From IMG/VR virus record IMGVR_UViG_3300024999_000046: DNA of 63,831 nt; one strand, 5' to 3'. Positions 16,001 to 63,831 of this stretch are shown one piece after another. A program made the position numbers and the translations under genes. Source of the stretch: an uncultured virus (IMG/VR IMGVR_UViG_3300024999_000046). Lineage: Duplodnaviria > Heunggongvirae > Uroviricota > Caudoviricetes. Positions within the stretch are counted from its first letter, which is position 1. Each line of letters opens with the position of its first letter. The notes beneath the pieces were generated by a model. It worked only from the letters and a program-made list of their open reading frames with translations. It had not been told where the DNA came from and did not search any database.

Positions 16001-17143
16001 TACATCGTCTAATTTTTCTTTTTTGATTTCTCTTTCTGCTATTCCTTTAAATGTTTGAGTAATCAAGAAAGTATGTTGCTCTTCTTTATCTTCATAAAGT
16101 TCTTTTATATATGGATAATTACTTAATATTTTTTGATTAACTGGATACCACTCTGATTTTTCAGGTAATTCCCTCAAAGGAATAATAGATTCAGCAAAGA
16201 AATCATATCCTACAACTTTATCAGCAATTTCTTTAGTATTTAATATTGCTTTTTCAATATCCTCAATTTCTAAATAATCCATATTCTTAAATATCTCATC
16301 CACTGTAAAAAAATGAGTTGTGCTATAAAACATATCTACTTCACGATTATTGTTTAAATCATCTTCTGAAGTTAAGAATGCTTTATGAATTTCTCTATCT
16401 TTTGCTGTTAAATAATGTGCATCGGTTGTCACTATCCATTTTATATTGTAAGCCTTTGCTACTTTTACCGCCATTTTATTGAAGTCTATTTGTTCCTGTT
16501 GTAAAGAGGGTTGGAGTTCGATGTAGAAATCTTCTCCAAATAAATCAAGACACCAATTTAAAAAGTCATCCAATTCATCTTTTATTTGTTCTTGAATCTC
16601 TTCATTTTCTTCTTGTAATAGACTCAAAATCAAGTGTGGTAACATTCCTCCAAGACAGGCACTTGATGCTATCAAATGCCCTTTATTTTCTCCTAAAATT
16701 GATTCTATATCACTATAGAAAGTAGGAACTCTTTCAACACCTTTATAGCTGAATAATCTCGTCCATGCTCTAGTGGATAGTTCTCTCATTTGCTCATGAC
16801 CTTCATTATCCTTGGCTAAAATTAAAAAATGATAGAATTTAGGTTTTTTATTTTGATCCTTCGTTTCTTCATACATTATTTCTTCATCAACTAAATATAT
16901 TTCATTCCCTAGAATTGGCTTAAAATCTCTATGTATCTTATCTTTAGATTTTAATTCCTTTACTGTATTTAAAAATTTAATGTGAGAACTAACAGATTCA
17001 TGCTCGGTTACTGCCATTGCCATATTTCCTAGTTCAGCAACATATAGAATCATATCTTTGACTTTATTTATGGCATCGCGAAAACGGGTGTTGCTATATT
17101 CTGTATGAGTGTGTAAATGAACAAAATCACTATCCTGTAGCAA
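13064..17143 (-). CDS. dnaE: DNA polymerase III alpha subunit (YorL-like)
   Basis: PHP 'HLHTHTEYS', GPGRGSA, DIDID, THACG, KYDFL, GYSFS..HA. Confidence 0.95.
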   Translation of the reverse strand: MLQDSDFVHLHTHTEYSNTRFRDAINKVKDMILYVAELGNMAMAVTEHESVSSHIKFLNTVKELKSKDKIHRDFKPILGNEIYLVDEEIMYEETKDQNKKPKFYHFLILAKDNEGHEQMRELSTRAWTRLFSYKGVERVPTFYSDIESILGENKGHLIASSACLGGMLPHLILSLLQEENEEIQEQIKDELDDFLNWCLDLFGEDFYIELQPSLQQEQIDFNKMAVKVAKAYNIKWIVTTDAHYLTAKDREIHKAFLTSEDDLNNNREVDMFYSTTHFFTVDEIFKNMDYLEIEDIEKAILNTKEIADKVVGYDFFAESIIPLRELPEKSEWYPVNQKILSNYPYIKELYEDKEEQHTFLITQTFKGIAEREIKKEKLDDVLERVNIECKEITGASKAKHQPMGAYLNTMQKNVDIIWEEAESFVGPGRGSANGYIINYLLGITQVNPLEQGVEMPHWRFMSAERPDIFDIDIDYSSHKKDVVMDKVVKYYQSIGGDAIRVCTFGTETSKSAIQTACRGLHINNDVALYLSSLVPVERGKVWSIHDCFYGDPDNGRKAVTEFRNMVSEYTDKNLLNVILGIEGLINKRSTHACGILILNEPITKHNSVMRSPSGELISAYELHDSEQVSNLKYDFLNTKTESMLQLTMEMLVKNNKIEWQGSLRKTYNKYLHPDVIDFKSKEMWDILCRGELLSCFQFESSVGEQAIKLIQPQNLIDASNGNTVMRLMVENGEQPLEKFVRYKNNISEWYKDMKKFGLNEEQINIMERHLLQDNGVCSSQERMMLLTMDSDVAGFGVIESNKLRKGVAKKQQKLIDDAKTLFFEWGEKANAPKILLEYIWNEQIALQLGYSFSILHAVAYTIILIQQLNLVYYYPPIYWNTAVLMVESGAVDRETCDDSDIEAKERTTNYGEIAKAIGKLQAKKINISLPYVNKAEQGFLPNEENNEIIFGFKGIMKINNETAQTIMQNRPYANLEDFHNRLVLVKKEVTLKTGKTQMRSLVAEGQTIMLIKAGAFDKIENKPREEILENYLRLLNPSKQKLNSKDISKIAEMGIIPSNLKDEIKFYNFREYLMSMPKQKDEQTKTITWHKIHDQFNEEDTEYANNFFLENFANEMEENKDYKYDEEGYLLIALGTPRKGSFESIYKNKIAQLNKWINTEECIYTYTNNIFQNIKNENMQGNISSWEMASMSFYSKEAGHELADIDQEKYGVVDFNNLPEEPVVIGFTKYKGLQYPKFQLNRIVGTVLDRDKNKHSVTILTPTGVVTLKFYAGQFSFYDKTISKDVGIADENGKIKKVVLENGWFSRGSLIMVTGFRRGDIFKPKRYKNSIYQHALSKIVEVREDNELILQNDRVQLVE

Positions 17144-17783
17144 TATCTAATTCCTCCTCTTCCTTCTTTATTATGCTGTCTATAAATAAATCAGATTTAG
17201 TATTTGTCTCTTGAAGAAACACTACCCATTCGTCCATAGTCATATCTCTTTTCCCTAAATTTTCGAATAGTGTTAAAAATTGATAATTATTTATTTCTTG
17301 TGTACCACCTTTGGATTTTGGCACAATATGATCGACTGAAGGTTTATACCAATTATAAAAGGTATTATTTGAATTTATTTTATTCTCTTTAATCCAATAC
17401 AGATAAATTAAATTAAATTGCTTATCTATGTAAAACTTCTCAATGAACTGTTTGTAAAATATTATATCTTGGTTTGTTGGGTTACAATGCACAAACGCCT
17501 TATGTAAGAAAGCATATTTTTTAAAATCATCAAATTTATCTACATATTCAAATTCTATAGGTATTTTAGTTGTTGCTACTAGATGGGCTTTTTCTCTAAT
17601 ACAACCACAACTTTGCTGTATGCGTGCTTTCCCATTAACAGCCCTTTGTTCTATTACTATTTTATTACCACAGTCACATTGAAATAACCACTCTCTCGTT
17701 TTTCTACCACTCTTCCTTTCTGGAACCAAAGAAATAGCTACTAGTTTCCCAAATCTTTTCCCCTCAATATTTATTGGTATCAT
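17130..17783 (-). CDS. Free-standing HNH homing endonuclease
   Basis: N-terminal 'GKRFGKL...WLFQCDCGN...SCGC'; C-terminal 'SVDHIVPKSKGG...NYQFL..EN'. Confidence 0.75.
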   Translation of the reverse strand: MIPINIEGKRFGKLVAISLVPERKSGRKTREWLFQCDCGNKIVIEQRAVNGKARIQQSCGCIREKAHLVATTKIPIEFEYVDKFDDFKKYAFLHKAFVHCNPTNQDIIFYKQFIEKFYIDKQFNLIYLYWIKENKINSNNTFYNWYKPSVDHIVPKSKGGTQEINNYQFLTLFENLGKRDMTMDEWVVFLQETNTKSDLFIDSIIKKEEEELDIATG

Positions 17784-29066: not shown

Positions 29067-29834
29067 TTACTGTACGATATTTGAAAATTTATTTATATCT
29101 TTATACTTATATGATTTATTAGATTTCTCATCTTTAATATATAATTTATAATCTTCTGTCAACCATTTTATTATTTTATTATACCTATCTTCTGTAAAAA
29201 ATTCCTGCTTTCTATACCAATCCTCAAAATTAAAATTCCATTTGTGACAATTACATGATTTACAAGCAGGTATGCAATTACTTAAATCATTAGCACCATT
29301 CTCATCATTATGATCTTTATGAAATCCACCTAATTTAGTAACTCCTTTATGTGTAATCCAATGTTCTGTAATCGGTAAACCACAATATGCACATTTATAA
29401 TCAAAATACTTTTGACATGCTTCCCATTCTTTTATACTAATTATATGTTTTCGTTTATTTCTAGAATATTCGTTACATTTTTCAGGATTTCTTCTTCTCC
29501 AACTAGATGAACTTTCATAATGTTGTTGAGGATGTTCATGTCTCCACCTAAGTGTTAATTTATTTCTTTCTTTAAGTTTTGCTTTTTGGTATATTCTTTG
29601 TTTTCTATAAATCTCCTCTTTATTATTTGCTATTCTTTTGCTTGTTGCTTCTATAGAACATTTTTTACACCATGAACTAAATCGATCAGAAGTTTCTTTT
29701 GTTTTATAGAAATATTCCTCAGTCATTGGAAACCACTCTTGATGATCTTTCTTAGTACATTGTTTATATTCTACTCCGTCAATTGTCTTATGCGTCAAAT
29801 TATAATTATATTGATTTCTCTCTTCTCTTGTCAA
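29067..29834 (-). CDS. HNH endonuclease
   Basis: CAYCG...HKDH...GANDLSNCIPACKSCNCHK. Confidence 0.85.
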   Translation of the reverse strand: MTREERNQYNYNLTHKTIDGVEYKQCTKKDHQEWFPMTEEYFYKTKETSDRFSSWCKKCSIEATSKRIANNKEEIYRKQRIYQKAKLKERNKLTLRWRHEHPQQHYESSSSWRRRNPEKCNEYSRNKRKHIISIKEWEACQKYFDYKCAYCGLPITEHWITHKGVTKLGGFHKDHNDENGANDLSNCIPACKSCNCHKWNFNFEDWYRKQEFFTEDRYNKIIKWLTEDYKLYIKDEKSNKSYKYKDINKFSNIVQ

Positions 29835-37783: not shown

Positions 37784-38641
37784 TTATCTATAGGACTCCA
37801 TATAGTCCTTAATGTCTTCTTTCAAATCTTTTTTCTTGATTTTTGTAGCAATTACTTCTATAGTATTTCTCATTTCATCAACACTCCATAATTGATGATA
37901 AAACTTTCCAGTATTACCATCTTTTTTCTTAACTACCCTATAAGGTAATTTATCCTCTATGTAATCTTTATACCCTTCTGCCATCCATAGTTTTATGAAT
38001 TGTAACATAGTTTCACTGAAAAATTCCTGCTTTCTATACCAATCTTCCATATCATGCTGATGTTTATAACTATTACATCTTTTACAAGATGGTACAGAAT
38101 TTCTTAGATCATTGTATCCATCGCTCACAACATGTTCTTTATGTAGTTTTTGTTTATATATTCTTAAATGTTCTTCTTCTGTAATCCCACAGTATGCACA
38201 TTCACAACCAAATATTTCTAAACAATTATCCCATTCCTCTTTGGAAATATCGTGCTTTCTTTTATTTTTTGAATACTCTCGTATTCTATCTGGATTCTTT
38301 TTTACAAACCTTTCATGATCACTAATCATTTTTTCTCTATTATGTTCTCTGTTGTATTCCCTGTGAGCTTGATGTCTATCATTATAAGCTTGTTTATTTG
38401 CAAGATAGTGATCTGCATTCCATTTTCTTGCTCTTTCAATATTGTTATTTCTGTTTTCTCTAGCTTTATCAATTAGACATACTCTACATCCTGGAGTTAA
38501 CCCTAATTCTGGTTTTGATTTGTTTATCATATAGAAATTGTCAAATGTTTCTTCTTTCCATTCTTCGCATATAGTACACATCTTTTCAATTATATTATTA
38601 ATATTTCTTCGCTTCAACCAATATATTTCTTTTCTAGTCAA
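37784..38641 (-). CDS. HNH endonuclease, paralog of 29067..29834
   Basis: CAYCG...HKEH...NDLRNSVPSCKRCN, shared EDWYRKQEFF. Confidence 0.85.
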   Translation of the reverse strand: MTRKEIYWLKRRNINNIIEKMCTICEEWKEETFDNFYMINKSKPELGLTPGCRVCLIDKARENRNNNIERARKWNADHYLANKQAYNDRHQAHREYNREHNREKMISDHERFVKKNPDRIREYSKNKRKHDISKEEWDNCLEIFGCECAYCGITEEEHLRIYKQKLHKEHVVSDGYNDLRNSVPSCKRCNSYKHQHDMEDWYRKQEFFSETMLQFIKLWMAEGYKDYIEDKLPYRVVKKKDGNTGKFYHQLWSVDEMRNTIEVIATKIKKKDLKEDIKDYMESYR

Positions 38642-52533: not shown

Positions 52534-54375
52534 TTAAATTGAACTTCCTAAAATACTCAATATTGTATTCATATAGTCATCTTTATTTTTATGCTCTAAG
52601 AGTCTAAGTTCTTCAACAATATTATAAAGATTTCCCAAAATAAATTTATAATCATTAATATCCAAATTGACTTCTAAATCATCTCTTAAATTAGTCTGAT
52701 CAATAATTTTCCTATCAACATAAACTTTATTTGCTTCAATATTTCTAATTACGAATACATTATCTTCAACAATTTGAGTATTAATATCTAAACTTTCTAC
52801 CTTTATATTCTTTGTAACGGATAAACTGCCTATTACAAAAGCATTATAAGATAGTCCTACAATCCTACTTATCATATCAAATAGCATTAATGCCCTATGT
52901 TCTTTAATATTTAACGATGTATCTGATAACACTCCAGTTATTATTACATCTTCAATTAGTTCTGAAATATGTAATACATTATCAGAATCTTTCATGTTTT
53001 TAAGAATTTCTTCCTCAATTTTATTTCTTGCAATAATTATTTTTAAATTATAATGTTTTACTATATTGAGTTTATATTCATATTTCTCAACTTCTGAAAA
53101 TCCAATATAGAATACTGGCTGATCATTGTTTAGAATAATCTCTCCTTGTTTTACAGTTGTTTCATTATCCTTAATCTCTGGTTTTTCTACATATCCATCA
53201 GAATAAGAACTCCTACCTTGATGTACTATAATTCCTTTTGCTTTTGGAGGTTGAGTTTTAATTTTAGCATCAATAGTTACTTCTTCAAAATTAGATTCAT
53301 TTTGTTGATTTGATTCTTTTCTTAAATGTAATTCATAATCTTTAAAATTATTAATTCCTTTATTTTTGCCTTTTGCTATGGCAACACCCCTTAAATATTC
53401 TAAGTCCTTTTCATCACTACTTTTAAATGTAAGGAATTTAATCATATTTTTAATTTCTTTCTTGTTTACATAATAACTAATTGCACTTGTAAATTCATTA
53501 ATTTCATCTTCGTCACCTTCAAGCATTGTTTCTGCACATAGTTTTTCAGCATAAGTCTTAACTATATTTCTAAAATCATAAAATTTACTATCCTTAATAA
53601 CATCTTTTCTGTCTGGTGAAGTTAAATTTAATGCTTTATCACTAATATGTAAGTCTCCTTTAAGATAAGGTGTGCTTTCTAGTTTAGTTACTAATCTTCC
53701 TTTATAAAAGATGTTTAAATTATCTCCCCATCCATAATTATTGTTGAGTGCAATCCAACCTTTAAAACTTTCTGCGTCTTCTATAGGTAATTTATAGATA
53801 CTGTCATCACCTTGAGTTAAATCCTTTTTCTCCTGTAGATCATCATTATAATAAATATCTAACTCATGAATATATCTTCCCAATAATCTTGCTCTTTCTT
53901 GAATATCAGATGAAGAAGCCACATTAAAATCAAAATTATTTAATACAAGTTTAAATCCCTCATAATGTCCTTTGATCTCTTCAACTTTAATTTCAGTATC
54001 ATTTGTTTGAATCATATTTTCAACATCAAATGTAATTAATTTATTTCCTGTATATATTTGAATGAAATTACTAACTGTAATATTACTAAAGAAACCCATG
54101 CCGAAGGGATTTTCAGTTGATTTAATATCATCATCCCATTCACTTTCAGCAATAGAAAATAGGGCTTGAGGTTTAGTTAAGATTTGTCCATTGTTTTCAA
54201 TAATTACTGTTTTTTCATAATAATCTACTGTTATTTTAACCTCCGTTGCCTTTGCTCTTTGAGCATTTTGAATATCTTCATCAAGAAAACATAGGGTATC
54301 TTTAAATGTACTTTGACGAAGTAATTTTAATTGATTAATTACATTGACCTGTAATTGTACTTTGTTTTCACTCAT
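52534..54375 (-). CDS. GHKL (HSP90/MORC-like) ATPase domain protein
   Basis: E.IQNAQRA, IENNG, FGMGFFS; 'LTSPDRKD' in the S5-like region. Confidence 0.75.
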   Translation of the reverse strand: MSENKVQLQVNVINQLKLLRQSTFKDTLCFLDEDIQNAQRAKATEVKITVDYYEKTVIIENNGQILTKPQALFSIAESEWDDDIKSTENPFGMGFFSNITVSNFIQIYTGNKLITFDVENMIQTNDTEIKVEEIKGHYEGFKLVLNNFDFNVASSSDIQERARLLGRYIHELDIYYNDDLQEKKDLTQGDDSIYKLPIEDAESFKGWIALNNNYGWGDNLNIFYKGRLVTKLESTPYLKGDLHISDKALNLTSPDRKDVIKDSKFYDFRNIVKTYAEKLCAETMLEGDEDEINEFTSAISYYVNKKEIKNMIKFLTFKSSDEKDLEYLRGVAIAKGKNKGINNFKDYELHLRKESNQQNESNFEEVTIDAKIKTQPPKAKGIIVHQGRSSYSDGYVEKPEIKDNETTVKQGEIILNNDQPVFYIGFSEVEKYEYKLNIVKHYNLKIIIARNKIEEEILKNMKDSDNVLHISELIEDVIITGVLSDTSLNIKEHRALMLFDMISRIVGLSYNAFVIGSLSVTKNIKVESLDINTQIVEDNVFVIRNIEANKVYVDRKIIDQTNLRDDLEVNLDINDYKFILGNLYNIVEELRLLEHKNKDDYMNTILSILGSSI

Positions 54376-56478: not shown

Positions 56479-56913
56479 TTACACCCCAACTTTACGCATC
56501 TCTCTGTAATCAGTAATAGCACTTTTAGTTCCATTAAAATCAAACATAGGAGAATTAATTGTTCTTTCCCTAATTTCTATGTGTTTAAATGGACAAGATT
56601 TGATATTGCCCATCTTATTCTCTTTTCTTAAAACTTCTAACATATCAACATTTTCAATATGGAAGGTAATTACAAATTTTATTTTCATTCCCTTATCTTG
56701 AAGAGACTTCAATTTTATTTCAGCATCTAATTTGTCCGTATATGTATAGTATCCATTTGTAAGTTGTTCGGAGTAAGAATAGATATTCTTCCCACTTTGT
56801 TTATCATATGAAACTGAATTGACCCCAACATAATTTCCTTCACTGTCTTTAAGTGCAAATACTTTTAATTCTGTCATTCCATCTTCTCCTCTATAATTTT
56901 TTAGTGAAACCAA
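56479..56913 (-). CDS. Hypothetical protein (likely start 56877, MTELK)
   Basis: ORF track; SD GAGGAG. Confidence 0.6.
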   Translation of the reverse strand: MVSLKNYRGEDGMTELKVFALKDSEGNYVGVNSVSYDKQSGKNIYSYSEQLTNGYYTYTDKLDAEIKLKSLQDKGMKIKFVITFHIENVDMLEVLRKENKMGNIKSCPFKHIEIRERTINSPMFDFNGTKSAITDYREMRKVGV

Positions 56914-57100: not shown

Positions 57101-57134
57101 AGTCTATAGTCCCATTAACTTGGGACTATAGACT
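57101..57134. terminator. Perfect 14-bp stem overlapping the repressor stop codon
   Basis: AGTCTATAGTCCCA-ttaact-TGGGACTATAGACT. Confidence 0.65.
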
Positions 57135-58116
57135 GTGTTTGTTTGTATGTTTCATACATTTCTTTTAATCCTTGCCATCCCCTTTCATCTAATTGTAAAT
57201 CTCTAAATAATTGTCTAAAGTTTTCTGATGTCAATTCGCCAACTTCATTTTCTTTCTTTAAGCATCTGTCTAATAATCCAGATTGAAATACTAAAGTAGG
57301 ATTTAAGAATTTAATTCCAGTATATTGTCTAAAATTCTTAAATCTTGCACCAATGTTTCCTACAGTTATCCTTTCTTCAGTATTGTTCTTTCTTCCGATT
57401 GTACGTAAAATATATGGAGTATCTTTAGTTGGTAAAATAGCAAATCTACCATCATCTAAACCATTTAATTTATGATAAGTATCTTCCAAACAAGCCATTT
57501 GTAAAATCTCCATAGTTCTAGGATCTACAGTTATCGGTCTTGATTGAGGAAATAAGATTTCACCGTAAGGATCTCTAGTAACAATAATTGTATTTGATTC
57601 GGGAATAAGATCAGTCTTTTTAATATTTCTTAATTCTTCAAAAGTATGATCTTTAATTGGTCTTCCCCTTACAGTCTCAAATAATAGTGCCACAACCGAC
57701 TTATCAGCGTAATTATAAAGCATGTCGCAATAATTATACATTTGTTCTCTAGTAATATAGGAAAGCTTTTGAGCTACTTGATGAATATATTTTGGTAAAT
57801 CTTCTTTTTTATCAACTAACTTAAGAACATTCATAGAACTATGGTTTTCTGCTAAACACCAGTCTAAATATTGCATAATGATTGTATAAGCAACACCTAA
57901 TGATTTAAGAGACTTTTTCTTCATTCCAATTAGTAATTCTTTTACTTCTTCATAACTAAATTTACATAAGTCTTTGTTTTTCTCATGTTCGAACCTGCTA
58001 ACGTTTTTTAAAATTGAGGTATTTGTCATCCGAGTGCTTTCATTTGGATATTTTTCATTAAGAAAACGATTCTTTTGCTCTTCATTAAATAATGTTCTTT
58101 CAATAGTGAATGACAT
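57115..58116 (-). CDS. YopR/MrpR-like master repressor (degenerate tyrosine-recombinase fold)
   Basis: Blocks FNEEQK, NKDLCKF, YLDW, YITREQ, NYADKSVVALLFE, FLNPTLVFQSG parallel SPbeta YopR as I recall it; no HxxR catalytic motif. Confidence 0.82.
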   Translation of the reverse strand: MSFTIERTLFNEEQKNRFLNEKYPNESTRMTNTSILKNVSRFEHEKNKDLCKFSYEEVKELLIGMKKKSLKSLGVAYTIIMQYLDWCLAENHSSMNVLKLVDKKEDLPKYIHQVAQKLSYITREQMYNYCDMLYNYADKSVVALLFETVRGRPIKDHTFEELRNIKKTDLIPESNTIIVTRDPYGEILFPQSRPITVDPRTMEILQMACLEDTYHKLNGLDDGRFAILPTKDTPYILRTIGRKNNTEERITVGNIGARFKNFRQYTGIKFLNPTLVFQSGLLDRCLKKENEVGELTSENFRQLFRDLQLDERGWQGLKEMYETYKQTQSIVPS

Positions 58117-59480
58117 TATGATACCTCCTCCTTATTTTCGGAATTAGAAATAATATCCTTGAAATAATCTAAAATCTTTTTAAAGGTAGATCGATTGACA
58201 TTATTTTCAATTCCAATTTTTCTCCAAATTTTATTTGACTTATTGAAGTCCAAAGATTTTAAAACTTTTAAAAACTTAGGCTTCCAATCATCACCATGCT
58301 TTTGTTTCATCAAATCTCCTAATATAATATATCCCATAAACATATTATCATGCGCCATATAAGTGTTTTCTCTGGTGTTTGATAATAATTCCAATTTAAA
58401 TTTAGAGTGATAAAGACCAATGACATTATTAAATATTTCAATAATATCATTCTCAACTTCTTCTGTTCTAATAGCTGGTTCCTCTTTAAGATCATAAATA
58501 AACTCAATTGTTTTTGATAGAGTATCAAACGTCATTAATTTGTTTTCAATTTTTAATTCTTTTTCGTTTAAGGCTATGCGATTAAACATATCGTTCTTGC
58601 TTTGGTGACTGTTTATAGCTTTAGCTACTTCCATGTTTGGATTAGCTGTATCTTTAAAATCGACCCATTCTGTTTGAATTGGGGCAGCTAAACTTTCTTG
58701 TTTTATTATTTGATTCGCACGTTCTTCTGTGACATGATGAATATATATTGACGTAACCCTATCAATTTCCGGCTTAATTTCAACTACTTTTACCATACCA
58801 CAAGTACGATTGGCCCCATCAATTATATCTACGAAAGTCGTAATATTATCTGGTTCAATTAATAAAGTTCTAGCTTTTGCGTCATATTTAAATTTCTCTT
58901 GTCCATTTATCTTTCTAATATTCCATATAATGGCGTTCGGGCAGAAAGTATTATCTAACATTGATGACGTAATTTCCGTAACTTTTTTACCACCAACATT
59001 AATTGATTCAACAATCTTATCACCACTTCTTCTTTTAAGAAGTTGTCTTTGAGTATTGGGATTGTAAGTTAATAAACCATTCCCCATATAAACCCCAACA
59101 TTTTGATAAGTGTCTTTGGTGCATAAAAATTGAGTTGCGCTAATTTGATCAACATTATGAAGTAGAATATATTTAACTTTTTCTTTTTCTAACTTTTGGT
59201 ATGTTTCAGCAAAAGACAATTCAATTTCAGTAAAATATTCATCTGGATCTATTTCTGGTTTGCGAGTATATCCATAGAGATACTTTGTAAATAAACACAA
59301 TTCTGTTTCTGATACATAAACCAAAGGAATTGCTTTAGTAAATATACCTGTTGTCCTACCCCTTGGAATCCCTCTTTCTAATAATTTAATTATTACTTGC
59401 TCTTGAACTTGATTGTCATTTGAATAATCTTCAATTACCAAATCAAGAACATCCTCAAGAACTTGACGGTCTTTTTTCAT
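58116..59480 (-). CDS. YopQ-like DndB/DGQHR-family protein (start reassigned to MKKDRQ)
   Basis: 'YNPNTQR', 'IIDGANRT' DGQHR-like motif; SD AAAGGAGG; translationally coupled to the YopR-like gene. Confidence 0.75.
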   Translation of the reverse strand: MKKDRQVLEDVLDLVIEDYSNDNQVQEQVIIKLLERGIPRGRTTGIFTKAIPLVYVSETELCLFTKYLYGYTRKPEIDPDEYFTEIELSFAETYQKLEKEKVKYILLHNVDQISATQFLCTKDTYQNVGVYMGNGLLTYNPNTQRQLLKRRSGDKIVESINVGGKKVTEITSSMLDNTFCPNAIIWNIRKINGQEKFKYDAKARTLLIEPDNITTFVDIIDGANRTCGMVKVVEIKPEIDRVTSIYIHHVTEERANQIIKQESLAAPIQTEWVDFKDTANPNMEVAKAINSHQSKNDMFNRIALNEKELKIENKLMTFDTLSKTIEFIYDLKEEPAIRTEEVENDIIEIFNNVIGLYHSKFKLELLSNTRENTYMAHDNMFMGYIILGDLMKQKHGDDWKPKFLKVLKSLDFNKSNKIWRKIGIENNVNRSTFKKILDYFKDIISNSENKEEVS

Positions 59481-59572
59481 AATAATTCCTCCTTTGAATA
59501 TATTAATTTTACATAGCTTTGACACAATCATGTCCACAAATAGTATATAATATTTTGCTATGTAATATTACC

Positions 59573-59601
59573 ATTATAAAACTATTATACTCAAAGGTCA
59601 A
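59573..59601 (-). promoter_or_regulatory. SigA-type promoter for the repressor operon
   Basis: TTGACC-17-TATAAT. Confidence 0.65.
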
Positions 59602-59651
59602 GAGAAATAGACATAATATATTTATTTTAGTGAAATTTATTATTAAAAATT

Positions 59652-60443
59652 TTAATAAAACATATTCTCATAAGTTTGTAACTTCATTTGTTCTTTACAC
59701 AGTAAATTGTTGATAAACATCAATAGTAAAGTTATGAAAATTATTGGCACACAAGTTATCCCAATGATAATATACAATTTTTCTATAAATTGTATATAGA
59801 TTAAAATATTGTTTCTCTCTATTAATTTTACAATGTAAGAAACTAAAGAAATTCTAACTAATACCATTAAAAGTAGACTATATATAAAGAACTTGTTTTT
59901 AACTATGGAGTTGAATAACTCAATTTGAACTGTACTATTTCTTCTCATTATTACAAATGAAATGACACATAAATACAATACTCTTGCAGGAAGACCTAAT
60001 AGAAAGTTGTAGTATACATTAGCATTAAAAAATGATATTGGTCTATCTAACAATGAGGCAATTAAGGGACAATATGAATATTCTACTAGTCCTACAATAA
60101 CGAATCCTGCTATTGTGTAGATTGCTGTCTTAAGGATTAATAAAATGTTAATGTCGTAACTGTTATTTATAACTATAAATTCCATGAGTAAAATCATAAT
60201 AATCATAGTTGAAATCATCATATTTTGCTGGGGTACAATTATTATGTATTTTAGGATATTTATCATTATGGATACTGGAAGCACAGCTAATGCAATCCAT
60301 TTTAGGCTTTTATTCCACATGTAAATGTCTAGAAGATTATTTAGTTTTAGGAATATTAGAGTTATTATTACGACGAAGGATTCTTCTGGGATTGATGTGA
60401 AGATTATGTTTAGGAAAATGTGGGGTAGGGATAGTGTTTGCAT
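59652..60443 (-). CDS. Multi-pass membrane protein, AgrC-sensor-like without kinase domain (paralog 2)
   Basis: About 7-8 hydrophobic segments, 'SIPEE' motif, no HisKA/HATPase motifs; adjacent to agrB. Confidence 0.7.
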   Translation of the reverse strand: MQTLSLPHIFLNIIFTSIPEESFVVIITLIFLKLNNLLDIYMWNKSLKWIALAVLPVSIMINILKYIIIVPQQNMMISTMIIMILLMEFIVINNSYDINILLILKTAIYTIAGFVIVGLVEYSYCPLIASLLDRPISFFNANVYYNFLLGLPARVLYLCVISFVIMRRNSTVQIELFNSIVKNKFFIYSLLLMVLVRISLVSYIVKLIERNNILIYIQFIEKLYIIIGITCVPIIFITLLLMFINNLLCKEQMKLQTYENMFY

Positions 60444-60488
60444 ATGGGTGCGCTCCTTTTTATTTTATTTAGTTAGATTGTATTTTAT

Positions 60489-61139
60489 TTAAGAATCTAA
60501 CTTTGAGTATACGATTTGTCCTATTTTACATACGCTAAACAATTCTAATAATAATCCGAAACAACTAGAAATTACAATTATTTTTAAATTAAAAAAAATG
60601 AAGACAATCATTAATATAGACCATATTAGTAAAAAATATAATGATTGCCTTTTAAGTTTTTTTATTTGCAAAATATCTATAATTCTATTGTTAGGGGTAT
60701 CCCTCGGACAATATCGAATACTTATATATAAACCAATAATTAAACATGTCATAAACAGCCACAATACGGATGATTGAGTCCAATAACAAAGAGTAAGTGA
60801 AACTACTAAAGCAGAACCTACAAATTGTGTAAAACTGACTATTATACAACCATTGTACGTATTCATATGATAACCACCAGCAGCAATAATTCTTAAGGAT
60901 GAAAATGTTAATATAATAGATAAAATTGATATTATAGAATTTAACATATTACCTACTAAAATACCTAAAATAACAGTGAAACATATTAATAAAAATCCTT
61001 TATATAAAGCACCTATTGGGAGCATCCATCCATATGTGAAGACTTCAATCTGATCTTCTACGGTTGGATATTTAGTGTTTGGTACATTCGAAGCTAACCA
61101 TTTAGCCAAATAATTTGAAACTCTTTCCACTAAACTCAT
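60489..61139 (-). CDS. agrB: AgrB peptide-processing protease
   Basis: 'EVFTYG', 'LRIIAAGGYH......C' with catalytic His/Cys, 'P.DTPN', multiple TMs. Confidence 0.92.
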   Translation of the reverse strand: MSLVERVSNYLAKWLASNVPNTKYPTVEDQIEVFTYGWMLPIGALYKGFLLICFTVILGILVGNMLNSIISILSIILTFSSLRIIAAGGYHMNTYNGCIIVSFTQFVGSALVVSLTLCYWTQSSVLWLFMTCLIIGLYISIRYCPRDTPNNRIIDILQIKKLKRQSLYFLLIWSILMIVFIFFNLKIIVISSCFGLLLELFSVCKIGQIVYSKLDS

Positions 61140-61166
61140 TAAATTATTTAATCTTCCTTTCTTTAA

Positions 61167-61940
61167 TCATGCAAATGCTACATGCTGACTTGCACTACGA
61201 TTGTAATTATTTTGATATTGGAATGTTTTCTGCTTGTTCATATTCATTAAGTATTGAACTGCTTCTTGTTCGTTCATTTTAAGATGGATAACTCCTTGAG
61301 CCTTAAGCATCGCAACTTCTACCAATAACATTATCTCTGAAGGACATTCCGATACTTTTTGAACTATCCCATTTTGACTGAGCCTCCTTTTTGACACACA
61401 GCGAATTTGTTCACAACTAATAATTGATTCTTGGGGCAATCCACAGTTTTTGGCCTCAACATGGGTAGGGAGCTTTGCCTTGGATTTTCTACTGGTGAGA
61501 GGTAAAATAATAGAAGTTGATGAGAAATGATTGCCCACATCGTTTTGTATAACTAAACATAAACGATTACCACCATATTCTGAATCAATGACATCACCCA
61601 AACCAACATAACAAAATGTTCCTCTTCGAACTTCAATGTTTTTAATTTGTTCCATATCATTGTTTACATAATTAGAGTAACCACAAGCTAAAGTTAAATC
61701 TTTTAATGAAACTCTACCTTCAGATGTATCTGCAATAATTTTAAGAAATTTAATGTCTGGATAAGAATTTATTTTCGCATTAAGTATATTAGCTAAATAA
61801 TCTGCATTAGTTTTACAATCAGCAGCAAATCCATTGGTTGTTCTATGCCCTTTTGCAGTCATAACGTAATTTGCCAATTTTTTAAAATCTTTCTTTGCGT
61901 TTTCCTCAGTAGTAACCTTTTTCATTAATTTGTTAAACAT
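61167..61940 (-). CDS. XRE-like HTH fused to MazF/PemK endoribonuclease (start reassigned to MFNKL)
   Basis: C-terminal half 'RRG...SEYGGNRLCLVIQNDVGN...PLTS..KAKLPTHVE...EQIR..SKRRL' parallels B. subtilis NdoA/MazF; N-terminal HTH-like segment; SD AAGGAG. Confidence 0.85.
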   Translation of the reverse strand: MFNKLMKKVTTEENAKKDFKKLANYVMTAKGHRTTNGFAADCKTNADYLANILNAKINSYPDIKFLKIIADTSEGRVSLKDLTLACGYSNYVNNDMEQIKNIEVRRGTFCYVGLGDVIDSEYGGNRLCLVIQNDVGNHFSSTSIILPLTSRKSKAKLPTHVEAKNCGLPQESIISCEQIRCVSKRRLSQNGIVQKVSECPSEIMLLVEVAMLKAQGVIHLKMNEQEAVQYLMNMNKQKTFQYQNNYNRSASQHVAFA

Positions 61941-62005
61941 AATAACGCATCTCCTTTTCATAATAACATATTTCATTTTCCTTGATACTTAACTTTATAT
62001 CTATA

Positions 62006-62033
62006 ATATTATCACAAATAAGAGATATGTCAA
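62006..62033 (-). promoter_or_regulatory. SigA-type promoter for HTH-MazF, agrB and membrane gene
   Basis: TTGACA-16-TAATAT with TG. Confidence 0.55.
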
Positions 62034-62057
62034 TATGTTTTATAAAATTATTTTTAA

Positions 62058-62093
62058 TTTTATAGGGGAGACTTTTTAGTCTCCCCTATAAAA
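62058..62093. terminator. Perfect 16-bp stem directly after agrD
   Basis: TTTTATAGGGGAGACT-tttt-AGTCTCCCCTATAAAA; no clear U-tract, so may be a stabiliser. Confidence 0.65.
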
Positions 62094-62102
62094 GAGTTTG
62101 TC

Positions 62103-62222
62103 CTATTTCAGACAACTAGGTTTTTTAGGCTGATAAGAAAATGCAAAAGAGAACATATGCGATGCATATAATGCGGAAGCAGACAATAAACCAGCAAGAG
62201 CAATGTACATTTTATTTTTCAT
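62103..62222 (-). CDS. agrD: AgrD-type cyclic lactone autoinducer precursor (39 aa)
   Basis: Manual: MKNKMYIALAGLLSASALYASHMFSFAFSYQPKKPSCLK; SD AAAGGAGGTG; leader + ring + YQPxxP tail typical of clostridial AgrD; near agrB. Confidence 0.9.
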   Translation of the reverse strand: MKNKMYIALAGLLSASALYASHMFSFAFSYQPKKPSCLK

Positions 62223-62268
62223 AATTTTCACCTCCTTTACTTACTTTTTTATACATAACAAATGTTTT

Positions 62269-63060
62269 CTAATCATTAAGATTATCATACATTTGATGTA
62301 CACGTTTTTCTATTCCAACTACATAATTAATCATATACCATAGAATTATTAAAAATATAGTTGGGAGACTTAAACACCATCCTATAATAAATATTTGTTC
62401 CAATATTGGTAAATTACATGTAATCAAAATATTATTATAACCTATTAATTTAACTACATAAATTAAAAAGAATATCAAAAATATTACTATAAAAATTATA
62501 ATGTGAGTTAATGTTTTGTTTTTAAAAATGATATCATATAATTTCACATTAACTTGTTCATTAACTTTAACTATAAAAAATGTGACTAATGAAAATTCTA
62601 AAATCCTGCAAGGTATTACTAATAAAAACATATATAATATATTCTCATTGAAAAAATTATATGATATTTTTAATAATGAAAATGTTAATGGCATATATAA
62701 TAGTTCTATGGAAGTGATTATTATAAATACAATCATTGTATATATAATAGTTTTGGCAATAAGTTTTCTTTCAGGATCAATCGATAATGTTTTAATAATA
62801 TAGTAAATTGTTGCACAAAATGTAATTAAAGAAATCATAGTAATCCACAATTTAGGTAAAATTATTATGTATTTAAAAACATTTATACAAACTGACATTG
62901 ATAATGAAGGAATCATGATCCATTTTATATTGTATTTCCACATTCTTATATCTAATAAGTCAAACCTTTTAAATAATATTAGCGTCATACAAGTTGCGAA
63001 TATTTCTTCGGGAAGAGAGATAAATATTGTACTTAATAAAGCATGGATTATGTTTTGCAT
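62269..63060 (-). CDS. Multi-pass membrane protein, AgrC-sensor-like without kinase domain (paralog 1)
   Basis: 263 aa like 59652..60443; shared 'S(I/L)PEE', 'LLDI.MW...KWI', 'KYIII.P', 'P.R.L'. Confidence 0.7.
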   Translation of the reverse strand: MQNIIHALLSTIFISLPEEIFATCMTLILFKRFDLLDIRMWKYNIKWIMIPSLSMSVCINVFKYIIILPKLWITMISLITFCATIYYIIKTLSIDPERKLIAKTIIYTMIVFIIITSIELLYMPLTFSLLKISYNFFNENILYMFLLVIPCRILEFSLVTFFIVKVNEQVNVKLYDIIFKNKTLTHIIIFIVIFLIFFLIYVVKLIGYNNILITCNLPILEQIFIIGWCLSLPTIFLIILWYMINYVVGIEKRVHQMYDNLND

Positions 63061-63098
63061 ATGTCATTACTCCTTTTATTTTTATTATCTTTAAGATA

Positions 63099-63127
63099 AT
63101 TTTACCATATGCAAAACACCATGTCAA
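63099..63127 (-). promoter_or_regulatory. SigA-type promoter for membrane paralog 1 and agrD
   Basis: TTGACA-17-TAAAAT with TG. Confidence 0.7.
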
Positions 63128-63137
63128 TATTTATTTA

Positions 63138-63734
63138 TTAATTTATATTAAGAAATTTAACTGAATGATAGACAATTATAAAAGCAAATAATCTACATAA
63201 AATATCACCTATTGATAAAATTGATGTTCCGAAATCGAATACATCTGATAAAAATATCAATCTTGTTGTATGGCCTCCAAGAACATAAAATTCACTAAAC
63301 TTAGAGGCATTCATAATCATATCATACTGTGTGTAACCAGTTGAATAAGACACCGATGGAAAAATTGGCATGAGATTATTGTTAAAATGCATTACAATCT
63401 TATTCAATGTAAAGCCACACAAGAGACTACAACAAGCAATAATATACTCCTTATACTTCTCATGCCTAAACAAAACATCAAGTCCCAGAATCATGTATGA
63501 TCCTAATATAGCATTTTTTATTATGTGTTGATATTGAAGAAAATAGTAATTTTGATTCATTATCGTGTATTGTAGGTAGACATAGAATATTGACATAATT
63601 ATTACTGGATAGATGCTCCATATTTTTAGTATTGGTTTTATATTGTACGATTCTTTATGTATTTGGAGTTTTCCTAGTTTTATGTATAGTTTTGTTTTTA
63701 TAAGAATCAGACTAAATATTAATGTCTCAACCAC
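63138..63734 (-). CDS. DUF5317-like membrane protein
   Basis: 'G..LN..V...N...MP', 'T.L.FLSD', 'LSIGD'. Confidence 0.7.
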   Translation of the reverse strand: MVETLIFSLILIKTKLYIKLGKLQIHKESYNIKPILKIWSIYPVIIMSIFYVYLQYTIMNQNYYFLQYQHIIKNAILGSYMILGLDVLFRHEKYKEYIIACCSLLCGFTLNKIVMHFNNNLMPIFPSVSYSTGYTQYDMIMNASKFSEFYVLGGHTTRLIFLSDVFDFGTSILSIGDILCRLFAFIIVYHSVKFLNIN

Positions 63735-63831
63735 TTACTGGCACTTCCTCTTTATCTATTTTTCTTAATTCACCAAAATCATAATTAATTGTATATTCGC
63801 GACACTCTAATTTCTTTTCTTCTATGTATAT
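63727..63831 (-). CDS. 3' end of an upstream gene (partial)
   Basis: Open frame ...IHRREKKLECREYTINYDFGELRKIDKEEVPVSG* overlapping the DUF5317 start. Confidence 0.45.
   Translation of the reverse strand: MYIEEKKLECREYTINYDFGELRKIDKEEVPVSG

Follow-up and report, generated by a model that had tools for sequence, protein, structure and literature searches.

The window analysed here is a 63,831-nucleotide (nt) stretch of DNA from the uncultured virus IMGVR_UViG_3300024999_000046. At its right end, where all genes lie on the minus strand, one gene encodes a MazF-type toxin domain preceded by a predicted helix-turn-helix (HTH) domain. This gene, designated HTH-MazF below, is located between an agrD-like gene and agrB, in an agr-type cassette that is followed by genes resembling yopQ and yopR of phage SPbeta. 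A MazF toxin, agr genes borne by a phage and a setting that recalls arbitrium and MazF are all of known kinds; their combination as HTH-MazF and agr is new.

Architecture and distribution of HTH-MazF

The listing of open reading frames (ORFs) gives 61167..61976 on the minus strand (269 amino acids, aa), starting from an upstream in-frame ATG at 61976. Because a AAAGGAGA box is found 8 nt 5' of the ATG at 61940 (MFNKL...), and because this start agrees with the N-termini of the relatives, the coding sequence is likely to be 61167-61940, of 257 aa. Its parts are as follows.

61167..61940, minus strand: HTH-MazF coding sequence, 257 aa plus stop; the upstream in-frame ATG at 61976 is an unlikely start
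61671..61907, minus strand: predicted N-terminal XRE-like five-helix HTH domain, residues 12-90 (predicted local distance difference test score, pLDDT, about 85-93 in the model; XRE structural matches; no Pfam match)
61632..61688, minus strand: ultra-conserved linker, residues 85-103, consensus ACGYSNYxNNDMEQIKNI (alignment, ratio of non-synonymous to synonymous substitution rates, dN/dS)
61296..61631, minus strand: predicted MazF/EndoA-type endoribonuclease domain, residues 104-215 (Pfam, PDB search, Foldseek, structure alignment)
61563-61565, minus strand: codon of R126
61494-61496, minus strand: codon of T149
61170..61295, minus strand: C-terminal extension, residues 216-257 (helix 224-234 and a disordered tail, rich in Asn, with ..VAFA at its end)

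The MazF domain is recognised both by sequence and by predicted structure. PF02452 (PemK_toxin) matches residues 105-208 over positions 1-102 of the 109 in the profile (E 5.5e-19, 68.8 bits for a cut-off of 23.1), and phmmer against the PDB returns Bacillus subtilis EndoA/YdcE (E 2e-20, residues 103-199 aligned). An AlphaFold model of the full-length protein, built with 26 family members as input (mean pLDDT 77.5), has the MazF barrel at residues 104-215. Residues 102-219 are the stretch placed on MazF structures, both by Foldseek (4mdx, template modelling score, TM, of 0.88, root-mean-square deviation, rmsd, of 1.8 and 43% identity, in the SH3-like barrel fold of MazF, Kid and CcdB) and by VIA-align (Z 16.4-16.2 to MazF-mt1 and Staphylococcus aureus MazF over 111-113 residues).

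The protein contains the motifs EYGGNRLCLV and LPLTSRKS, and a gap-free alignment to EndoA chain 4me7_A pairs R126 with position 25 and T149 with position 48, an Arg and a Thr that we take to be the catalytic residues of EndoA. In the alignment of the 26 members, R126 is invariant (26/26), as are S150 and R151, and T149 is kept in at least 90% of the sequences. Many other residues shared with EndoA are retained (S120, E121, G124, Q132, N133, P158, T159, H160 and E177), together with the PTHV and EQIR segments, and the domain shares 47% identity with the MazF encoded on the chromosome of a Clostridium metagenome-assembled genome (MAG) that carries a related prophage. The domain is thus predicted to be an RNase, a catalytically competent endoribonuclease of EndoA type. 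Compared with B. subtilis MazF (EndoA/YdcE; 1ne8, 4mdx, 4me7), with which it shares fold and family (42-43% identity, TM 0.88, Z 16), the fusion has an additional N-terminal HTH and linker of about 100 residues and a C-terminal extension of about 40 residues; in contrast to that protein, it is encoded by a phage, in an operon with agrB and with no adjacent mazE.

In the full-length model, the N-terminal domain consists of helices 12-30, 35-41, 46-53, 63-72 and 79-85 (pLDDT about 85-93 for residues 20-90); the linker forms one short helix (95-100), and the barrel is followed by helix 224-234 and the disordered tail. Nearly all structural matches of this domain come from the XRE family: residues 10-90 match 2ofy (Z 10.5, rmsd 2.6, 76 residues), C.AhdI (9.4) and CapH (9.2), and further ImmR, SinR, the 434 and P22 repressors, HigA and HipB, with Z to about 7. 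The model obtained for the domain on its own again finds XRE-family proteins (Z at most 7). Moreover, the N-terminal part has a weak match to phrog_18248, a 'transcriptional regulator' (E 7.6e-4), and an ESM Atlas search, taken as a lead only, gave a best score of 0.86 with HTH_3 in 17% of the members. As modelled, the domain is likely to be an XRE-type HTH with a five-helix, lambda-repressor-like fold.

A sequence-only reading of the window had proposed an ORF at 61167..61940, an XRE-like HTH fused to MazF, and an Arg (GGNR) and a Thr (PLTS) equivalent to the catalytic residues of NdoA. The ORF is real at these coordinates, according to the ORF listing and the start evidence, and both residues align with those of EndoA and are conserved; the HTH is backed by predicted structure, without support from sequence profiles.

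The linker is the best-conserved stretch of the protein, with A85, C86, G87, Y88, S89, Y91, N94, D95 and I99 invariant among the 26 members. Mean identity is 0.66 in the N-domain, 0.79 in the linker and 0.58 in MazF, and median pairwise dN/dS is 0.16, 0.12 and 0.22 for the same parts and 0.27 for the C-terminal extension, values for which dS is near saturation and each region had 40-67 usable pairs out of 91. All four parts of the protein are under purifying selection. A search with residues 1-103 returned 53 proteins, 51 of which carry PF02452, the two others being fragments of 148 aa from tiny contigs (731 and 1429 bp); no shorter, stand-alone homolog of the N-domain was found. Over the sequences that these searches cover, the N-domain is obligately fused to MazF.

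In the protein database, 50 relatives were retrieved (E at most 1.2e-67, 51-100% identity), 47 of them covering at least 95% of the query. Among deposited phages, blastn with positions 59400-63831 gave no match, and none of the 57 records matched at the protein level covers 80% or more of the query; one such match that seemed to reach the N-domain (H1) was rejected as a 153-aa MazF with a spurious upstream extension. The family is rare in reference genomes, with a single locus in the species genomes scanned. Of the 80 loci kept from a metagenome scan, most are canonical chromosomal MazFs and only two (L022 and L023) are family members, and the nearest virus record, a 36-kb fragment (G001), has no MazF match. 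Across the protein, IMG/VR, genome, metagenome and deposited-phage searches, the family is seen only in the agr-type cassette. Even if its link to signalling were not functional, HTH-MazF would be a MazF of new architecture, restricted to a single phage lineage. Our literature search, which did not extend to supplements, found no description of an HTH-MazF fusion or of an agr cassette in SPbeta-like clostridial phages.

The agr-type cassette, its control DNA and a second MazF

The window has 28% G+C, and its PHROGs content includes a YorL-type DNA polymerase, a RecJ-like exonuclease, a primase, a DnaB helicase and exonuclease V, as well as a ribonucleotide reductase, a NAD ligase and many HNH endonucleases. 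The source is a large Clostridium phage and, judged by this gene content, an SPbeta-like temperate one. HTH-MazF was compared across 17 related loci: 14 from IMG/VR (11 distinct, L006-L009 having identical values), one from the Clostridium MAG and two on metagenome contigs. Its neighbours in the window are these.

63138..63734, minus strand: DUF5317 membrane protein (PF17248, E 4e-16), syntenic in 15/17 loci
62269..63060, minus strand: memA, a 263-aa polytopic membrane protein with no kinase domain (ORF listing, profile scans, synteny)
62103..62231, minus strand: agrD-like precursor peptide, 42 aa (TIGR04223, 19.5 bits for a cut-off of 19), tail conserved in 15/15 loci
60489..61139, minus strand: agrB (PF04647, E 6e-24), with its own ribosome-binding site and the motif GGYHMNTYNGC containing His and Cys
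59652..60443, minus strand: memB, a second 263-aa membrane paralog that only some relatives have
58116..59537, minus strand: DndB-like protein of YopQ/SroE type (PF14072, E 6.5e-8; phrog_5732, E 4e-60)
57115..58116, minus strand: MrpR/YopR(SroF)-like integrase-fold repressor (PF22822, E 1e-18; PF22823; phrog_5830)

The arrangement is highly conserved. A 263-aa membrane protein (family mem263) is found upstream of HTH-MazF in 17/17 loci, an agrD-like ORF lies between the two in all 15 loci examined, the window included, and agrB, which starts 27 nt past the HTH-MazF stop in the window, follows in all 16 loci that are long enough. Of the 15 long loci, 14 have the YopQ-like and MrpR-like genes downstream, and the exception, L005, stops past its YopQ-like gene. 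The position between agrD and agrB, noted at the outset for this window, is shared by these related loci, and the lack of co-occurrence with agrBD in homologous loci that had been named as an argument against HTH-MazF being the effector of the cassette is not what we observe.

No HisKA, HATPase or LytTR match was obtained in a profile scan of the cassette proteins. In the relatives, the intervals that separate agrB from the YopQ-like gene, which were inspected rather than profile-scanned, contain homing-endonuclease-like genes and a small conserved protein, with no kinase or LytTR regulator. The locus is thus a conserved, kinase-less agr-type cassette. PADLOC reported no family for eight proteins, and the term 'DUF5317' returned no paper in the literature search.

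The mem263 family has 117 representatives at E of 0.001 or less, the longest of 326 aa, and none of the 31 scanned passed a Pfam cut-off. As a lead only, an ESM Atlas neighbour cluster of the 263-aa proteins bears the automatic name 'sensory transduction protein kinase' (score 0.88). Identities of memA and AgrD to those of the window co-vary (69% and 64% in L006, versus about 40% elsewhere), which is the pattern that would be expected of a receptor. The AgrD-like peptides end in ..QPxxPxC(L/M/F)(K/E) in 15/15 loci and have Ser at the ring position in 14 of the 15 (for example ..SFAFS-YQPKKPSCLK), Cys occurring only in L013. The ring-forming residue of clostridial AgrDs is, we assume, Cys; its replacement by Ser suggests a signal closed as a lactone, not as a thiolactone.

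Immediately downstream of the cassette come the YopQ(SroE)-like and YopR/MrpR(SroF)-like genes. In SPbeta, YopQ is presumably the DndB-like gene beside YopR, and the arbitrium genes of SPbeta-like Bacillus phages are, as we understand it, just upstream of the yopQ/yopR operon. Going by these neighbours, the position of the cassette is that of the lysis-lysogeny control region of an SPbeta-like phage. The names are equivalent: MrpR designates YopR, the SPbeta master repressor, in PMC10516654, and SroF is given as another name of MrpR/YopR in 10.1101/2025.11.27.690993.

Three good sigma-A-like promoters head three transcription units, and two further elements surround that of HTH-MazF.

63127-63099, minus strand: predicted sigma-A-like promoter before memA
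62058..62093, minus strand: conserved hairpin separating agrD from the HTH-MazF promoter, with a perfect stem of 16 bp and without U-tract (folding, covariation)
62006..62033, minus strand: sigma-A-type promoter TTGACA-16-TAATAT with TG extension, predicted to serve HTH-MazF, agrB and the second membrane gene; -35 and -10 conserved in related loci
61997..62028, no strand assigned: inverted repeat ATATCT-N20-AGATAT across the HTH-MazF promoter, a candidate operator
59601-59573, minus strand: predicted sigma-A-like promoter before the YopQ-like gene

From this layout, HTH-MazF and agrB are predicted to form one operon with its own strong promoter. The hairpin was not called as a terminator by prediction; across nine loci, 4 of its 10 pairs show compensatory changes and none is broken. 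Possible roles for it are factor-dependent termination and RNA stabilisation. The inverted repeats are candidate operators only: a pattern related to that of the window, AGATAT-N(10-40)-ATATCT, is found in 10/17 related loci shortly before the start codon, no more than about 70 nt away, at the promoter or slightly downstream of it.

The antitoxin gene that lies adjacent and upstream in a canonical mazEF operon was not found in the window by family profiles. No AbrB, RHH or MazE family was detected at E of 0.01 or less in 10 neighbour proteins or in 81 further ORFs of the window, and tblastn of the Clostridium host MazE against the window gave a best E of 0.5. HTH-MazF had been called an orphan: as regards a MazE-like gene in the window this stands, with the qualification that the relatives carry a second phage MazF. 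This free-standing paralog, MazF2, is found 0.1-2 kb upstream of DUF5317 in 13 of the 14 IMG/VR loci and in the MAG (L001-L012, L014, L015; for example L004:3727-4113), and the window ends, at 63831, short of its expected position. It has 126-140 aa, is 30-41% identical to the MazF domain of the fusion and retains the catalytic Arg and Thr/Ser; no conserved small or antitoxin gene accompanies it in the related loci.

Both phage proteins share a type of C-terminal tail, which in the fusion has a conserved hydrophobic end, ..A(F/Y)A. In 24 of 26 members the fusion ends with [AVSC][YFC]A plus at most one residue, and 9 of the 10 MazF2 copies read end with ..N(V/I)(A/V/S)YA(N) or similar. No such tail is present on the MAG's chromosomal MazF, which is encoded in the order alr-mazE-mazF. 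Since it is present on the fusion and on MazF2 and absent from the chromosomal protein, the tail is, as far as these sequences go, phage-specific and common to both phage MazFs. The tail of the fusion resembles the SsrA tag of the MAG genome (ANDNLALAA), and is reminiscent of what might be a ClpXP-type degron.

A likeness between the linker or tail and the MazF-binding part of Firmicute MazE was looked for and not recovered. Searching the PDB by phmmer with residues 70-112 and 197-257 brought up no MazE, and a profile of the N-terminal part had as its best PDB match an unrelated antitoxin (E 0.47), with no MazE likeness.

Possible role of HTH-MazF

Three known systems bear on the function of this gene. 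In phi3T, AimX and YosL inhibit host MazF, the activity of which promotes or is needed for lysogeny, and phi3T_93 binds MazE, so that more MazF is active (first point, excerpts of PMC10769878 and 10.1101/2023.04.27.537455; second point, PMC10769878). These excerpts bear out the premise of the sequence-only reading, according to which lysogeny of arbitrium phages is promoted by the MazF activity of the host. That reading further took HTH-MazF to be the effector of the cassette, either an RNase gated by the membrane proteins or a modulator of host MazEF; it is supported in part, by the architecture, the position between agrD and agrB and the lack of a MazE-like gene in the window, and the effector role itself would be one possibility. 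Our locus resembles the arbitrium-MazEF system of phi3T/SPbeta in its SPbeta-like backbone, its YopQ/YopR neighbourhood and the presence of a secreted-peptide system beside a MazF activity; it differs in that the signal genes are agrB and agrD and that the MazF, joined to an HTH, is the phage's own. Up to the window end at 63831, no cassette protein was recognised as AimR, AimP or AimX, and no inhibitor of the AimX or YosL type, MazE-like, was found in the window.

The second system is the C. difficile phage phiCDHM1, which carries agr-type quorum-sensing genes (PMC3901668). The likeness lies in a clostridial phage having such genes; the differences are that here there is no kinase and that HTH-MazF sits between agrD and agrB. 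The agr genes of phiCDHM1 are said to comprise agrB, agrD and the agrC kinase, with no MazF. Third, type II toxin-antitoxin (TA) systems with XRE antitoxins (HigA, HipB, MqsA type), and single-chain fusions, have an XRE fold N-terminal to a toxin, a likeness by which the layout of HTH-MazF suggests autoregulation. In contrast to these systems, toxin and HTH here form one polypeptide, and neutralisation by the N-terminal part is only presumed. The sections of Makarova 2009 available to us describe XRE domains as common DNA-binding modules of antitoxins, and their tables give AbrB, RHH, MazF/ccd and XF1863 as partners of MazF, without XRE.

We tentatively favour, at a little under even confidence, the view that HTH-MazF is a self-contained regulator and RNase, acting in the cytoplasm as the arm of an agr-type module that governs lysis and lysogeny of the phage. 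The MazF dimer would bring together two HTH domains, and these could bind the promoter of HTH-MazF at its inverted repeat, an autoregulation like that exerted by the DNA-binding domains of type II antitoxins. In place of a separate MazE, the attached N-terminal part and linker, or turnover through the SsrA-like tail, or both, may restrain the RNase. When RNase activity prevails, phage or host transcripts would be cut and the outcome biased towards lysogeny, the pro-lysogeny role of host MazF in phi3T being taken by the phage-encoded protein. The agr peptide signal would somehow bear on HTH-MazF.

Several observations speak against this view. The basis of the HTH assignment is a predicted structure. 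Pfam gives no family on the N-terminal part (HTH_3 and HTH_31-type profiles unmatched), and on the N-terminal parts of 12 members only HTH_DeoR, in one of them (E 0.027); the Z values of 7-10.5 fall in the range flagged by the structure-comparison tool as maybe a common helical arrangement, and the domain folded alone gives a poor model (pLDDT 52). The likeness of the N-terminal part and linker to host MazE is not established (BLASTP E 0.02 for one comparison made alone, and hhalign E 0.38). The inverted repeat consists of short, AT-rich words, its pattern count in the window is reached by 12 of 100 shuffles, and its arrangement in the window is unlike that in other loci. In the genes of the window, UACAU sites show no enrichment (93 observed versus 83 expected, z 1.1; 93 on the antisense strand). 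MazF-like genes are classed as morons in PHROGs, and an addiction or defence role apart from signalling is therefore possible. Finally, identities are mosaic (L001 has 88% in HTH-MazF and 25% in MrpR); since MrpR is 96% identical in L011 and L012 and HTH-MazF only 54%, the modules recombine and HTH-MazF shows no tight co-evolution with the repressor.

A more specific scheme, which we consider rather unlikely, is that clostridial SPbeta-like phages have replaced arbitrium by a kinase-less agr-type system with the antitoxin-less HTH-MazF as its output. With the 263-aa membrane proteins as its sensors, the signal would control the activity or the stability of HTH-MazF, possibly via the SsrA-like tail, and the phage could choose between lysis and lysogeny without host MazEF.

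Alternatively, HTH-MazF may be a plain prophage addiction, defence or superinfection-exclusion toxin, a single-chain XRE-MazF TA unit in a variable region, with no role in signalling or in the lysis-lysogeny choice. Such a unit would be in line with the match to phrog_1936 (E 1.6e-15, category 'moron, auxiliary metabolic gene and host takeover'), with the second MazF paralog close by in 14 loci, with the frequency of XRE domains among antitoxins noted above and with the mosaic cassette modules. However, its place between agrD and agrB is invariant, in an operon with agrB, in 16/16 loci, the family is seen nowhere but in the agr-type cassette, and no PADLOC defence model was matched, so that we judge this explanation unlikely.

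Even less probable, in our opinion, is a transcription factor that replaces AgrA. Its MazF fold would be domesticated, used only to dimerise or to bind a partner, with an RNase activity that has been lost or plays no part. The lack of an AgrA/LytTR or kinase match in the cassette, the stronger conservation of N-domain and linker compared with MazF (0.66 and 0.79 versus 0.58) and the inverted repeat at the promoter would agree with it, but the invariant Arg, the retained Thr and the many EndoA residues are unexpected in a dead enzyme. A decoy, of which the MazF domain would bind host MazE and free host MazF in the manner of phi3T_93, or form mixed dimers with host MazF or MazF2, is very improbable: it could draw on the 47% identity to a Clostridium host MazF encoded beside mazE and on the lack of a cognate antitoxin of its own in our searches, but it makes the conserved catalytic residues superfluous and leaves the N-domain and the tail unexplained.

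In this distant Clostridium branch of the SPbeta-type phages, agrB and agrD, without kinase or response regulator, are found at the place equivalent to that of arbitrium, together with the phage's own HTH-fused MazF. If the regulator-RNase link that we favour is functional, an RNase arm would be a recurrent component of phage lysis-lysogeny decisions rather than a peculiarity of phi3T, and HTH-MazF would be an example of a toxin restrained without a separate antitoxin. It would also offer, as a single protein with clear mutants, a tractable entry into kinase-less agr signalling.

Further observations on the window

UACAU sites are unevenly distributed around the cassette, in small numbers: the YopQ-like and MrpR-like genes (57115-59537) contain none in 2.4 kb, where shuffles give about 4.4, and the three upstream cassette genes have more than expected. 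HNH or homing-endonuclease genes are dispersed in the replication module, within positions 1-40000 (2-1273, 17130-17783, 29067-29834, 37784-38641), and in the relatives the cassette region is also split by large endonuclease-like insertions. A 613-aa protein encoded at 52534-54375 has a sub-threshold match to a GHKL ATPase (HATPase_c_3, E 1.3e-3, 19.2 bits for a cut-off of 25) and no PHROG.

A conserved small protein of 118-145 aa, with the motif ..WVIKDQDGNF.. and no family match, is encoded after MrpR in the window (56479-56913). In relatives it is encoded between agrB and the YopQ-like gene (L001:8434-8790, L003:5703-6110, L005:8736-9134, L013:7651-8088). By its position, the protein recalls the antirepressor region of SPbeta-like phages.

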